Assembly: GCA_963798795.1 (NCBI GenBank)
Contig: CAWCUZ010000001.1
Coordinates: 1,556,099 to 1,620,098 of the forward strand
Length of the DNA: 64,000 nt
Source: an uncultured Acidobacteriota bacterium
GTDB taxonomy: Bacteria > Acidobacteriota > Vicinamibacteria > Vicinamibacterales > SCN-69-37
Direction: 5' to 3'
The translations under genes were made by a program, and so were the position numbers. The notes under the pieces are model-generated. The model was given only the letters and a program-made list of their open reading frames with translations. It was not told the origin of the DNA and searched no databases. Positions within the stretch are counted from its first letter, which is position 1; each line of letters opens with the position of its first letter. Below, piece by piece: positions 6,744 to 16,778 of the stretch.

Positions 6744-6819
6744 GGCGGTGGATTGGACCCGTGATGCAGAGCCTTCAGAACGAGCACGGCGCAGGTCGCC
6801 AGAATCGCCAGCGTCGTGA
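6744..6819 (-). pseudogene. 5' fragment of a dsbA paralog
   Basis: 76 bp aligning with 10464-10539 (about 66/76 identical by eye); encodes TTLAILATCAVLVLKALHHGSNPP. Confidence 0.8.
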
Positions 6820-6879
6820 GACGCTTTGACCGTGCCGGGCGAAGTCACACCTGGCAGCCTCCGCTTTGCCGGCATCGAT

Positions 6880-9207
6880 TCACTCCATCCGCAGCGCGAT
6901 TGCGGGCGCAATGCGCGTGGCGCGCCAGCCGGAAGCAATGGCTGTCAGGGTCATTGTGGCGAGCACAACGCCACCTGAGAGGGTCGCCGTCGCCCAGTCA
7001 CCGGGCACGATCCCGAAGATCAGGCCCGAGAGGCCTTTTGAAAGCCACCGACCGACGAGCAGTCCGACGAGGCCGCCACCGCACGCTGCTACGCAGGTCT
7101 CGCCCGCCACCAGCGCGAGCACATGCGGTCGTCTGGCGCCCGCGACCAACCGAATAGCAATCTCGCGTCTTCGCCGTGCCACGTTGAATGTAACCATCAT
7201 TACCAGACCCGCCAACGAGACACACATTCCAACTACGGCAAACCCGGTCAGCATCACCGTGCCAAAGGTGCGTTGCCGCACCGTCTGCAGCAGCCGCTGG
7301 CCCAGGGTTTCCACATCGACAACACGGGCGTCTCGATCCAGGCGGTTGAGCGCGGCACCGATACGGTCACGCACTGCGTGCACTCCGCGTGCGGCACCAT
7401 CGCTCCGAACGATGAAGACGGCACGGAAGACGAACCGCGGGAGTGACATGCTGAAGAGTGTCGGACGATGGCCGTTGGCCAGTCCATGGTCCAGCGCGTC
7501 ACGCACAACGCCGACGATACGGCCTCGAGACGGCCCCACCTGCAACGGATAACCGACGGCGGCTTGGCCACCCAAATATCGCTCGACGAATGCCTGATTC
7601 ACGACGAAGCCACGGTCCGGCACGTCGGCGTCGCCGAGAAAACGCCCCGCAACCAGCGACATTCCGGTGGCCTCGAAGAACCCTGGGGCCACCATTGTAT
7701 GGTCCACGAGAAGATGCCGCCCATCGACCACGGCTGCCGAACGCGAAACCGCACCGTCGGCCAACGGGCCGGTCGTGGCGGACACTGAGCGCACGCCAGG
7801 AACGCGCCGCAAGGCCTCGAGAAACGGCGCCAGGTCACGGGGACGCGGATCGACGGCTCCCGCCATTGTGAAATCCACGGTCGCAGCCAGCGCGTTTGGG
7901 TCGTAGCCCGACTCCTGCGCCGTGAGAATGGAGTACGATCGAACGACCATTCCTGCGGCAACCGCAAGCACCAGTGTCAGGGCGGCTTGGGCGGCTGCCA
8001 GCGCGGCGCGAGCAACTGCCAGCCTGCGCGGTGAGCGTCTGCCCGGTGCCACCCGCCCTTCCCACCGCGCCGCTGCCGCCGCCGCCACCGCTGCGGCCAG
8101 GCTAACCGTCACGACGATGCCCGCACCAAACAGCACACCGTCCACCGTGATGTAGGGGACCCCGAACCGAAGGTACGCAGTGGGAATCGTCCTTACTACG
8201 ACCGTCGCTGTGAGGCACGATAAGACCGAACCGGCGAACCCGGCAGCCGCCAGCAGCAGGAACGCCTCGCACCACCAGAGTCTGGCAATCTCGACCGGGC
8301 TGGCGCCGAGCGCCTCGCGCGTCGCCGTCTCGCCGGCACATCGCAGTCCGCGCGCGATCATGAGGTTCGTCACGAACCCGAGGCACACGACTAGAAGCAG
8401 CACAGCGCTGCCGAACGCGCCAAGAGCCAACGGGCGGAGGTCGCGCGTCATCACATCCGCCAGCCGCTCGATTCGCACGGGAACAGGGGGGCCCGGGCGG
8501 TCCGCAGGCGACAGTGCGGCACGAGCCGCCTCGATCGAGACTCCAGGCACCAGCCTGGCGAATACCCGCGATGCCACCAGGTAGTCTGACGTGCCCTCGC
8601 GACGGAGCAGCGGGACCGGCTGTGCGACGATCAGCCCGTCGATGGCTGCCATCCAGGTCGGATCGGGAAACACGAAAGATGCGGGTAGCACACCGGCAAT
8701 GCGCACCTCTCGATCGTCACGGGTGACGAGGGACGCGCCTGGCGCGCGCAAGTGGTCTGGAAGCAGGGCGCTGCCGCTTGCCGTGAGGAACAGCCAGGTT
8801 GCGCCGTCTGTCTGCATGGCAGCGAGGTCAGGCGCAAGACCCGCCGGCTGCAGAACCTGCAGAAAGCTGGGCGTGACTTCGAACGTACGGAGAGGCAGGG
8901 TTTGATCCGGCAGCGTCAGCAGGAGCGTCCGGTTCCCCTGCACGGCGGCCACACTGCTGAATACTGACGTCCTGGCTTGCCAGGACTCGAGCGACGGCCC
9001 CAGTTGTGCGGTCGCCAGTCGATCAATCCCGATCCGCACCAACTCGCCGGGTCGCGTGAAGGGCAGCGTCTTCAGCACATACGGCTCGGTCAGCGAAAAC
9101 ACGAACATGGCGCACCCGAGCCCGGCGGCTAGAGTGGCCACGATGGCAGATGAGGACCGCGGTTCCCGCGCGATCCTGCGCCAGGCAGACCTCAGATCCG
9201 ATCGCAA
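6880..9207 (-). CDS. Divergent duplicated ABC permease (ADOP-like)
   Basis: DLRSAWRRI, ETATREALGAS, RRREIAIRLVAGA, terminal RIAPAIALR; TTG start uncertain. Confidence 0.8.
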   Translation of the reverse strand: MRSDLRSAWRRIAREPRSSSAIVATLAAGLGCAMFVFSLTEPYVLKTLPFTRPGELVRIGIDRLATAQLGPSLESWQARTSVFSSVAAVQGNRTLLLTLPDQTLPLRTFEVTPSFLQVLQPAGLAPDLAAMQTDGATWLFLTASGSALLPDHLRAPGASLVTRDDREVRIAGVLPASFVFPDPTWMAAIDGLIVAQPVPLLRREGTSDYLVASRVFARLVPGVSIEAARAALSPADRPGPPVPVRIERLADVMTRDLRPLALGAFGSAVLLLVVCLGFVTNLMIARGLRCAGETATREALGASPVEIARLWWCEAFLLLAAAGFAGSVLSCLTATVVVRTIPTAYLRFGVPYITVDGVLFGAGIVVTVSLAAAVAAAAAARWEGRVAPGRRSPRRLAVARAALAAAQAALTLVLAVAAGMVVRSYSILTAQESGYDPNALAATVDFTMAGAVDPRPRDLAPFLEALRRVPGVRSVSATTGPLADGAVSRSAAVVDGRHLLVDHTMVAPGFFEATGMSLVAGRFLGDADVPDRGFVVNQAFVERYLGGQAAVGYPLQVGPSRGRIVGVVRDALDHGLANGHRPTLFSMSLPRFVFRAVFIVRSDGAARGVHAVRDRIGAALNRLDRDARVVDVETLGQRLLQTVRQRTFGTVMLTGFAVVGMCVSLAGLVMMVTFNVARRRREIAIRLVAGARRPHVLALVAGETCVAACGGGLVGLLVGRWLSKGLSGLIFGIVPGDWATATLSGGVVLATMTLTAIASGWRATRIAPAIALRME

Positions 9208-9360
9208 CCCTCAAACCTCCGGGGAGACGCTACATCCTGCTGCCGGCCGTCAGCAAGGTCAGCGCCGACCGGTTCCCGGCGCGGCCAACGCACCGGCCCA
9301 GGGTTCCGCGCATACCGCCCGGCGCGAGCGGGTTCGGCCCGGGCCAGCTTCTCGGCACAG

Positions 9361-16020: not shown

Positions 16021-16347
16021 CTGGCACCAGATGTACAGGTCGCTCGCGCAGATCTGTTCCATGCCGCCGTACCAGACCGAACCGGCATCGCAGCTCGAAT
16101 GGATGACATTGTTGTACCCGCAGAACTCATCGCAGGTGTCCTGCTCATACGTGGCGCACCACTCGGCCACCGGGTCATTCCCGAGGTGAACGCAGCTCGG
16201 GCCGTAGGTATCCGTCTCGCACTCCTGGTAGAAGCCTCCGGAGATCTCGTAGCAGGTGAGCGCCTCGGCTCGAAGGGGCATCCTCGCGATACAGAACAAC
16301 AGACCGCACAAAAGAGCCAGCGCGCCGTTTCTAACCTTCCTCATCAT
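16003..16347 (-). CDS. Secreted acidic Cys-rich peptide 2 (10 Cys in mature part)
   Basis: GAGGG RBS; signal MMRKVRNGALALLCGLLF...AEA; CxxxC and terminal CxC; no K/R in the mature part. Confidence 0.75.
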   Translation of the reverse strand: MMRKVRNGALALLCGLLFCIARMPLRAEALTCYEISGGFYQECETDTYGPSCVHLGNDPVAEWCATYEQDTCDEFCGYNNVIHSSCDAGSVWYGGMEQICASDLYIWCQCSEVE

Positions 16348-16384
16348 ATGTCTACCCTCACGCTTCACCACCCAGTCATTGCGC

Positions 16385-16778
16385 CTATCCGCGCTCGGGC
16401 GTCAGCAGCCTCCGGTTCCACCGGCGCAATCGGGCTACCAGCGTTCCCGCCAGAATCAGTCCTGAAGCGAGCACCACGGCGAGCTCGACGCGCCGCCTTG
16501 GAGTCGCCGCGTTCTCGATCGCGCTCGCGAATTCCGCCACAGGCCGGGCGCCATTGAGACGTGCGCGAGCCTTCATGCGTCCATCCGGCTCGATGGTTCC
16601 GACGAGGAACGTGGGCGTGCCCGTCAATCGGAGCGACGCCGCACGCGCGGCGTCCTGCCTGACCGGGTCGTCAGATCCGGCCAGGCAAGCCGCAAAACGC
16701 TCCTGGTCGAGACCGATCGTCTGCGCGCGCAGCCTCACGCTCTGGTCATCCAGATGCGCCTGGTCTTGGAACAGCGCG
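16385..16778 (-). pseudogene. 5'-truncated dsbA paralog lacking CxxC
   Basis: ALFQDQAHLDD...FAACLAGSD...LRLTGTPTFLVG...RMKARA is colinear with the C-terminal half of 9773-10582. Confidence 0.85.

Follow-up and report, generated by a model that had tools for sequence, protein, structure and literature searches.

The DNA analysed here, a 64,000-nt stretch that we call the window, carries two modules in which the gene for a DsbA-like thiol-disulfide oxidoreductase is followed on the same strand by the gene for a small, acidic, cysteine-rich secreted peptide (pep1 and pep2). Our main finding is that this arrangement recurs: in one family of probable Acidobacteria, diverged DsbA paralogs lie beside acidic cysteine-rich open reading frames (ACRs), up to approximately nine times per genome and with a different peptide each time. 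We read the ACRs as putative Sec-exported, disulfide-rich mini-proteins, each of which would be folded by its own DsbA paralog, and we put the probability of this reading at about 55%. The initial annotation of the window had described a DsbA gene followed by a codirectional small signal-peptide frame twice, and both pairs are indeed where it placed them, on the minus strand.

An ACR, as defined here, has a signal-like N-terminus, six or more Cys (7% or more of the mature part), and an excess of D/E over K/R. In the genome that contains the window (an assembly of 12 contigs, 85.6% complete), the Cys and signal criteria return 64 open reading frames, 13 of which are acidic with coding-like composition and are the ACRs of this genome. 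The remainder are off-frame, Arg/Ser-rich frames, plus one 254-aa frame that by eye resembles a Tat-exported iron-sulfur protein. Eight of the 13 ACRs lie no more than 600 nt from a Thioredoxin_4/DsbA match; across 20,000 trials with randomly placed ACRs, the average was 0.07 and the highest count 2 (binomial P 8e-16). A ninth is 704 nt and a tenth 2.8 kb from such a match.

The initial annotation had made its case depend on Cys-rich frames also adjoining dsbA homologs in other genomes, and they do. We used 71 genomes of the family, with DsbA homologs present in 57 of the 61 searched, and collected 70 DsbA loci (29 came from the search itself, 40 were fetched and one is L132). An ACR lies within 600 nt at 36 of these loci, always on the same strand, downstream of the DsbA at 30 and upstream at six. 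The count becomes 35/69 if L115, from an unpublished genome, is left out and 34/68 if L132, taken as a pep1 match, is left out as well. The pairing is also phylogenetically restricted: among the best-matching DsbA loci in other families of this class, 1 of 29 has an ACR, and a control across phyla gives 3 of 80 DsbA loci, two of them acidobacterial. The pairing of DsbA with ACRs is not a product of chance.

A tree of 72 DsbA sequences (without L115) shows which copies are involved. One clade of 18 rows (SH-aLRT 95) holds 17 rows without an ACR and a single ACR-linked row; inside it, 14 short-branched rows form their own clade (SH-aLRT 99) with zero ACRs, and this looks like the conserved housekeeping DsbA. 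Beyond the 18-row clade, 38 of the 54 diverged paralogs are ACR-linked. The ACR label changes 15 times on the tree vs 24 times when shuffled, and none of 500 shuffles gave a value as low. Most genomes of the class outside this family (f1) have only one or two DsbA matches, so the DsbA expansion is lineage-specific.

ACRs diverge faster than their DsbAs. While all 741 of 741 DsbA pairs can be aligned, this is true of just 90 of 741 ACR pairs, and for L110 and L112 identity is 62% in DsbA vs 39% in the ACR. The suggestion in the initial annotation that the peptides form a polymorphic family thus extends well beyond the window, with diverged paralogs as the linked DsbAs. Across 51 ACRs, the medians are a mature length of 84 aa, 13.7% Cys, a net charge of -10 and 9.5% aromatic residues; the number of Cys ranges from 6 to 38 and is even in the mature part of 45 (P 9e-9). 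The dipeptide RN occurs within the first 12 residues of 14 of the 51, vs 33 of 1562 other signal-like frames. A large ACR type of 175-260 aa with 22-38 Cys is found across genera, always directly after a DsbA paralog. When ten further ACRs were compared with Pfam and NCBIfam, nothing was significant, and the matches listed (E 0.15 to 0.29) were far below the cut-offs. The best explanation is that ACRs are a lineage-specific, fast-diverging class in this one family.

Both peptides of the window look like genes. The N-terminus of each precursor is basic and is followed by a hydrophobic core and a credible cleavage site, and each start codon has AGGAG or GAGGG, i.e., a Shine-Dalgarno-like sequence, 7-9 nt ahead of it. 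G+C at codon positions 1/2/3 is 0.51/0.51/0.64 in one peptide frame and 0.50/0.46/0.81 in the other, highest at position 3 in both (G+C of the region is ~68%). The signal peptide of pep1 starts MRTIRNVTF, and its mature part has 8 Cys, 14 D/E, 4 K/R, 13 aromatics among 70 residues and no His. That of pep2 starts M-MRKVRN with probable cleavage after RAEA, and its mature part has 10 Cys, 15-16 D/E and no K/R, so the even Cys counts and strong acidity reported earlier hold for both. It had also been claimed that the two peptides share just a leader and a Cys frame. BLASTP cannot align them, the best segment being MRTIRN/MRKVRN at E 0.30, and their Cys columns do align in a common frame once relatives are included. 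The best explanation is that pep1 and pep2 are real genes for predicted Sec-exported mini-proteins with all Cys in disulfides.

Relatives of the two peptides are scarce. Neither has a family in Pfam or NCBIfam, a word search of 5.8 billion proteins retrieved each peptide solely as itself, and the ESM Atlas gave no usable match for either. A six-frame search of this genome and the 71 family genomes found one credible relative of pep1, in G058 at locus L132, where it lies directly after a DsbA; MRTIRNVTF is identical in the two, which belong to different genera, and the mature parts differ. No credible homolog of pep2 was found in its own genome, the 71 family genomes or the word search: an E 0.002 match in the family genomes was rejected as it sits inside an unrelated gene. 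Apart from the G058 relative, the weak peptide matches were spurious, L002 lying within a cation-efflux-like frame and L215 within a long unrelated frame on the opposite strand. It is only through its position, its leader and part of the Cys frame that pep2 counts as an ACR; pep1 has a family profile behind it as well (E 6.8e-8, with pep1 among the sequences from which the profile was built).

The intact DsbA of the window scores 83.7 bits against PF13462 (Thioredoxin_4; cut-off 23.2) and 46.7 bits against PF01323 (cut-off 25.6), so it belongs to both families. Its active site is CPFC, and in an alignment of five paralogs C74, P75, C77, T189 and P190 are invariant; we take P190, the conserved Pro of the TP pair, to be the cis-Pro of the DsbA-type loop. 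As read from the sequence, there is a hydrophobic N-terminal anchor at aa 10-32 and a second hydrophobic segment, at the C-terminus, at aa 234-256. The second copy is clearly similar, as the initial annotation had said, with 71 of 100 residues identical to aa 149-248 of the intact protein (E 3e-47), and the tblastn match reaches 16406-16789 of the window and aa 132-263 of the intact protein. However, this copy scores 22.6 bits against PF01323, under the cut-off of 25.6, and, having neither a complete thioredoxin domain nor the CxxC site, it cannot work as an oxidase. A third remnant, 85% identical to aa 15-41 (E 1.9e-8), explains why the region flagged initially started at 6744.

The edges of these copies are sharp. 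DNA similarity between the intact and truncated DsbA genes is ~78%, begins abruptly near 16790, with no homology between the two upstream of that point, and ends at the DsbA stop codon, past which the spacers and peptide genes of the two modules are unrelated. Our best explanation is a decaying local array, composed of an intact DsbA-pep1-permease unit, a pep2 unit without the 5′ half of its DsbA, and a DsbA stub. The whole genome has 14 DsbA-like matches. At one site (G000:C2:361266-363177, minus strand), an N-terminal piece of DsbA continues in frame into the C-terminal ~560 aa of a permease, the one most similar to pep1's neighbour; a deletion seems to have taken out the remainder of a DsbA-ACR-permease unit.

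The initial annotation had further compared the peptides with the cysteine-stabilised alpha-beta (CS-alpha-beta) fold of defensins and scorpion toxins. Sixteen small ACRs align on the frame C...CxExC-x6-CxxxC...C...GxCxC, and the 8-Cys frame CxxxC-x(5-7)-CxxxC...C...CxC is found in 13 of 58 ACRs, including pep1, vs a mean of 0.7 and a maximum of 4 after shuffling. By this frame pep1 is a member of a rare 8-Cys ACR subfamily; pep2 does not match it. A profile of ten mature sequences was searched against 1.84 billion representatives and at E <= 0.001 matched 15 proteins, 12 of them small and ACR-like, of which 7 were newly found, all with the RN leader. The other three are long (a protein with 10 Frizzled domains, another of mixed repeats and a CHU_C/T9SS protein), and we regard them as coincidences of Cys pattern. 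The first of these, P0003 (1442 aa, ten Frizzled cysteine-rich domains), was the top match, with E 6.7e-18 summed over 10 stretches, and Frizzled-7 cysteine-rich domains also appeared as weak PDB matches (E 0.4-1); here too we see a coincidence of Cys pattern.

Structure prediction for pep1 is compatible with this fold. The AlphaFold2 model (16-row alignment, mean pLDDT 73.6) contains a beta-hairpin, with residues 50-61 helical and 72-78 and 87-92 as strands; in it, C57xxxC61 falls within the helix, and C90xC92 belongs to the final strand. In the subfamily, a CxxxC helix is probably pinned to a C-terminal CxC strand, as in scorpion toxins and defensins. The scorpion toxin Kurtoxin (PDB 1t1t) was the only or top sequence-profile match in the PDB, with seven Cys aligned, at E 0.086 and 0.05, which are not significant. 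Kurtoxin, a long-chain toxin, shares with pep1 the series CxxxC, six residues, CxxxC, C, CxC and, with the model, the order of helix and strands; pep1 differs in that its eighth Cys is N-terminal rather than C-terminal, and ACRs are acidic and bacterial.

Other results lend the fold little support. Foldseek found nothing in the PDB at E <= 0.001 for the pep1 model, and the best score in a VIA wide search was Z 5.0, for the APP copper-binding domain, with the centipede toxin 6bl9 at Z 3.9, values in the range that this tool gives for common arrangements. Neither peptide fits the CS-alpha-beta expression of PMC11561630, C-X(2,18)-C-X3-C-X(2,12)-C-X(4,17)-C-X-C; in pep1 the loop from C61 to C77 has 15 residues, where the limit is 12. 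The expression fits 16 of 58 ACRs, 12 of which belong to the 13-member pep1 subfamily, and is weak evidence because shuffled ACRs match it at a mean of 8.0 and a maximum of 15 of 58. In the pep2 model (pLDDT 46.5), residues 44-51 are predicted as a helix and 63-73 and 76-85 as strands, all at low confidence, and the model is uninterpretable. A CS-alpha-beta fold is therefore plausible but unproven for pep1, its sole PDB sequence match being a scorpion toxin at E 0.05.

The mechanism that we propose is as follows. An ACR gene typically shares its orientation, and probably a transcript, with a diverged DsbA paralog of its own, and it would produce a precursor that crosses the membrane by the Sec pathway and loses its signal peptide. 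The DsbA, presumably tethered to the inner membrane with its CPxC site toward the periplasm, would introduce 4 to 19 disulfides, giving a compact, stable protein. It would then be re-oxidised by the genome's single fusion of VKOR with Thioredoxin_4, a 405-aa open frame on contig C2 (G000:C2:494478-495554, minus strand) that is presumably the general re-oxidation system; DsbB was not found in this genome, which at 85.6% completeness is not proof of absence. Our data show that the genes pair, that the pairing is phylogenetically restricted, that Cys counts are mostly even, that ACRs outpace DsbAs in divergence and which domains are present; export, oxidation by the neighbouring enzyme, the VKOR link and the fold we infer. 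As to what the products do, our foremost but tentative suggestion is that they might be extracellular or periplasmic binding proteins in microbial competition, acting by target binding rather than by cationic membrane lysis.

Several points weigh against this proposal, in addition to the structural results above. The ACR detector is a home-made filter with a crude, home-made rule for signal-peptide cleavage, 5 of the 13 ACRs of this genome are more than 600 nt from any DsbA, and 16 of the 54 diverged DsbA paralogs show no ACR. The 70 loci are best DsbA matches and not a random sample, and related genomes are not independent, so the P values given here overstate the case. Several DsbA paralogs are broken, some of them possibly through assembly errors in a 12-contig assembly. 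The initial annotation's dedicated folding catalyst has gene neighbourhood in its favour and, for pep2, is broken in its own module: the partner DsbA lacks its catalytic half, so pep2 either needs another paralog in trans or is decaying. Oxidase cannot be told from reductase or isomerase by sequence. No RNA run was listed among the sequencing runs containing this DNA; four DNA runs, all from one study and labelled soil metagenome, contain 11-15% of the sampled words, which shows nothing about habitat. Finally, a scan for promoters gave 0 and one for terminators 6, vs 0.8 and 4.7 in shuffled sequence, a chance level that makes the scan uninformative.

One alternative gives the neighbouring permease a part. 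The modules could be bacteriocin-like antagonism loci in which the ACR is a toxin, the DsbA its maturation enzyme, and an ADOP/MacB permease exports the folded peptide out of the periplasm or protects the producer. Thiol-disulfide oxidoreductases are reported from bacteriocin clusters, PedC serving pediocin PA-1 and others occurring in glycocin clusters (PMC4919988, PMC8620827), and there as here a thioredoxin-fold enzyme gene adjoins the gene for a small disulfide-bonded secreted peptide, for which it is presumed to be a private folding catalyst. The permease after pep1 scores 331 bits against TIGR03434, under the cut-off of 622.3, has the duplicated MacB_PCD/FtsX architecture and is by sequence a diverged ADOP relative. 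Its closest paralog also adjoins an ACR module (C2:361269-362942), a related permease follows two pep1-type ACRs in L160, and an ADOP-type permease follows the ACR in 5-6 of the 13 modules of this genome; the hypervariability and gene turnover would fit an arms race. However, the link is unspecific because ADOP permeases adjoin 6 of 36 loci with an ACR vs 6 of 34 without, and adjacency is cheap in a genome with ~249 candidates. On the same counts we rejected an ADOP permease as a constant third component in general, and the permease is a possible accessory gene of the pep1 module, weakly linked. The modules also differ from bacteriocin clusters in their membrane-anchored DsbA/Thioredoxin_4 enzyme, in a presumably Gram-negative-type cell, in being multi-copy (up to ~9 per genome), and in peptides with Sec-type signals rather than double-glycine leaders, 6-38 Cys and a net charge near -10, in contrast to the cationic bacteriocins and defensins that are known. 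Neither an immunity gene nor a dedicated leader-cleaving ABC exporter was recognised among the neighbours, where small immunity genes could be missed. We consider this account doubtful.

Other readings change the role of the peptide. ACRs may be secreted signals or pheromone-like recognition tags, or components of the envelope or matrix, with variability providing kin or strain specificity. A conserved leader on a hypervariable mature part would suit this, as would some of the neighbours (response regulators beside 8 of 70 loci, sigma-like genes beside 5, CarboxypepD_reg clusters at 15 and VWFA-type genes at 10), but no receptor gene is consistently linked, and such adjacency is weak evidence because these families are all large and paralogous in these genomes; we judge the idea decidedly unlikely. 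Alternatively, ACRs could be periplasmic metal binders, via thiolates or carboxylates, with the DsbA-like neighbour a reductase or isomerase that keeps or resets their Cys. ScsC/TlpA-type proteins carry out such cysteine upkeep in copper handling, ACRs are very rich in Cys and very acidic, the redox direction of a CPxC protein is not fixed by sequence, and the APP copper-binding domain is among the top structural matches for the pep1 model (Z 4.3-5.0). Even Cys counts fit paired disulfides instead, Cys spacing is conserved as a framework, pep1 has no His and those Z values fall in the tool's range for common arrangements. Metallothioneins characteristically lack aromatics, unlike ACRs with their median of 9.5%, and we regard metal binding as quite improbable. 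That pep1 and/or pep2 are unexpressed, as chance frames or dead remnants beside decaying DsbAs, is scarcely credible to us. The locus is visibly decaying, and pep2 combines a truncated DsbA and a poor model with the lack of a credible homolog, but both frames are open and have signal peptides, Shine-Dalgarno-like sites and the G+C pattern of genes, each has an even number of Cys, in columns that line up with those of a strongly non-random class, and pep1 has a syntenic homolog and profile support.

Returning to the reading of ACRs as mini-proteins folded by neighbouring DsbAs, known systems offer partial parallels. Dedicated disulfide catalysts for single substrates are already known, for example DsbL/DsbI for arylsulfate sulfotransferase and SrgA for Pef fimbriae. 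A Bordetella DsbA is also reported to be specialised for pertussis toxin (PMC12724015). What these share with our modules is an extra DsbA beside, or tuned to, particular exported substrates; they are single pairs with a large enzyme, pilin or toxin as substrate, whereas here there is a family-wide, multi-copy expansion with hypervariable mini-proteins. Bacterial cis-defensins, which have the CS-alpha-beta framework, are a parallel on the peptide side: PMC11561630 reports 74 peptides in five classes, one peptide being from Acidobacteria, and acidic N-terminal tails in some classes. ACRs resemble these as small signal-peptide precursors with CxxxC and CxC, and differ in being anionic overall and, for pep1 and pep2, in falling outside the published expression. 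The terms DsbA, thioredoxin and gene cluster are absent from the main text of that paper.

As an analogy only, ACRs also recall animal venoms. Conotoxin gene superfamilies combine a conserved signal sequence with a hypervariable mature peptide built on a disulfide framework, much as the RN leader recurs among ACRs and MRTIRNVTF is kept while mature parts differ; animal venom genes, unlike ACRs, have no genomic link to a folding enzyme. One could take this further and imagine a venom-like repertoire, i.e., dozens of hypervariable mini-proteins of scorpion-toxin/defensin fold with a shared leader and co-evolving private DsbAs, serving as anionic, target-binding effectors against soil organisms. 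Its cassettes would be replaced at the 3′ boundary of DsbA; homology in the window stops exactly at the DsbA stop codon. We think this extension unlikely; if true, it would mean a new mode of microbial antagonism and possibly a bacterial root of the 8-Cys scorpion-toxin framework.

In the literature searched, we found no paper on Acidobacteria cysteine-rich proteins paired with DsbA. Neither the Pfam and NCBIfam models nor that literature matched a multiplication of DsbA paralogs across a whole family in which each copy has a different anionic, Cys-rich mini-protein as its partner. If our reading is true, the modules would be a source of stable disulfide-rich scaffolds from a soil phylum that is hard to culture, would provide natural enzyme-substrate pairs for DsbA specificity, and would be a testable case of rapid diversification in secreted bacterial proteins. 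They also bear on where the CS-alpha-beta framework of defensins and scorpion toxins occurs in bacteria.

Table 1. Features of the window around the two modules, followed by members of the large ACR type elsewhere (G000, the genome of the window; L numbers, loci in relatives).
Feature	Position	Strand	Basis
Nucleotidyltransferase/HEPN-like pair	17883-16943	minus	HEPN named by eye
5′-truncated DsbA paralog, C-terminal ~130 aa	16385-16789	minus	BLAST/tblastn to intact DsbA
pep2, 114-aa precursor	16003-16347	minus	Open reading frame and signal peptide
Two CarboxypepD_reg multi-domain genes, 3′ of pep2	12612-16178	minus	Pfam PF13620, 108.7 and 94.2 bits
VapBC-like pair	12519-11721	minus	Named by eye
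DUF6036-like nucleotidyltransferase frame and 71-aa frame	11554-10854	minus	Pfam E 7.6e-4, below cut-off
Intact DsbA-like oxidoreductase, 269 aa	9773-10582	minus	Pfam PF13462, PF01323
pep1, 97-aa precursor	9361-9654	minus	Open reading frame and signal peptide
Diverged ADOP-type permease, duplicated MacB_PCD/FtsX, directly 3′ of pep1	6880-9207	minus	Pfam FtsX, MacB_PCD
Third DsbA remnant, N-terminal membrane anchor (aa 15-41)	6740-6820	minus	tblastn
Large ACR type	G000:C7:201202-201879		
Large ACR type	G000:C1:1645038-1645739		
Large ACR type	L105, L110, L112, L121, L122		

None of the recurrent neighbours (ADOP, CarboxypepD_reg, VWFA, response regulator or sigma-like genes) is specific to ACR-bearing loci. 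The ADOP expansion of this genome is extreme in itself: its ~249 candidates come from a first look, 67 were scored and all 67 exceed the NCBIfam cut-off, above which none of 14 control genomes has a paralog; on this ground we regard the organism as an acidobacterium. In the window, the first CarboxypepD_reg gene, taken at its greatest length (14283-16178), runs into the 3′ end of pep2 (16003-16178) in a different frame, and no canonical start codon stands just after the pep2 stop, so that the gene either overlaps pep2 or has an unusual start.

Three toxin-antitoxin-like pairs lie between and beside the two modules (10854-12519 and 16943-17883, minus strand). On the plus strand is a 519-aa frame (18915-20474) with ordinary-looking outer thirds, the C-terminal one membrane-like, and an Arg/Ala-rich middle third that is seemingly out of frame; this is a possible double frameshift or assembly error, which bears on how the 'broken' DsbA copies should be judged. 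At 18250-18910, frames on both strands contain short recurring peptide units, e.g., IGRSGNRQSDREIGQSS several times, and this implies that the DNA is tandemly repeated immediately ahead of the next gene.

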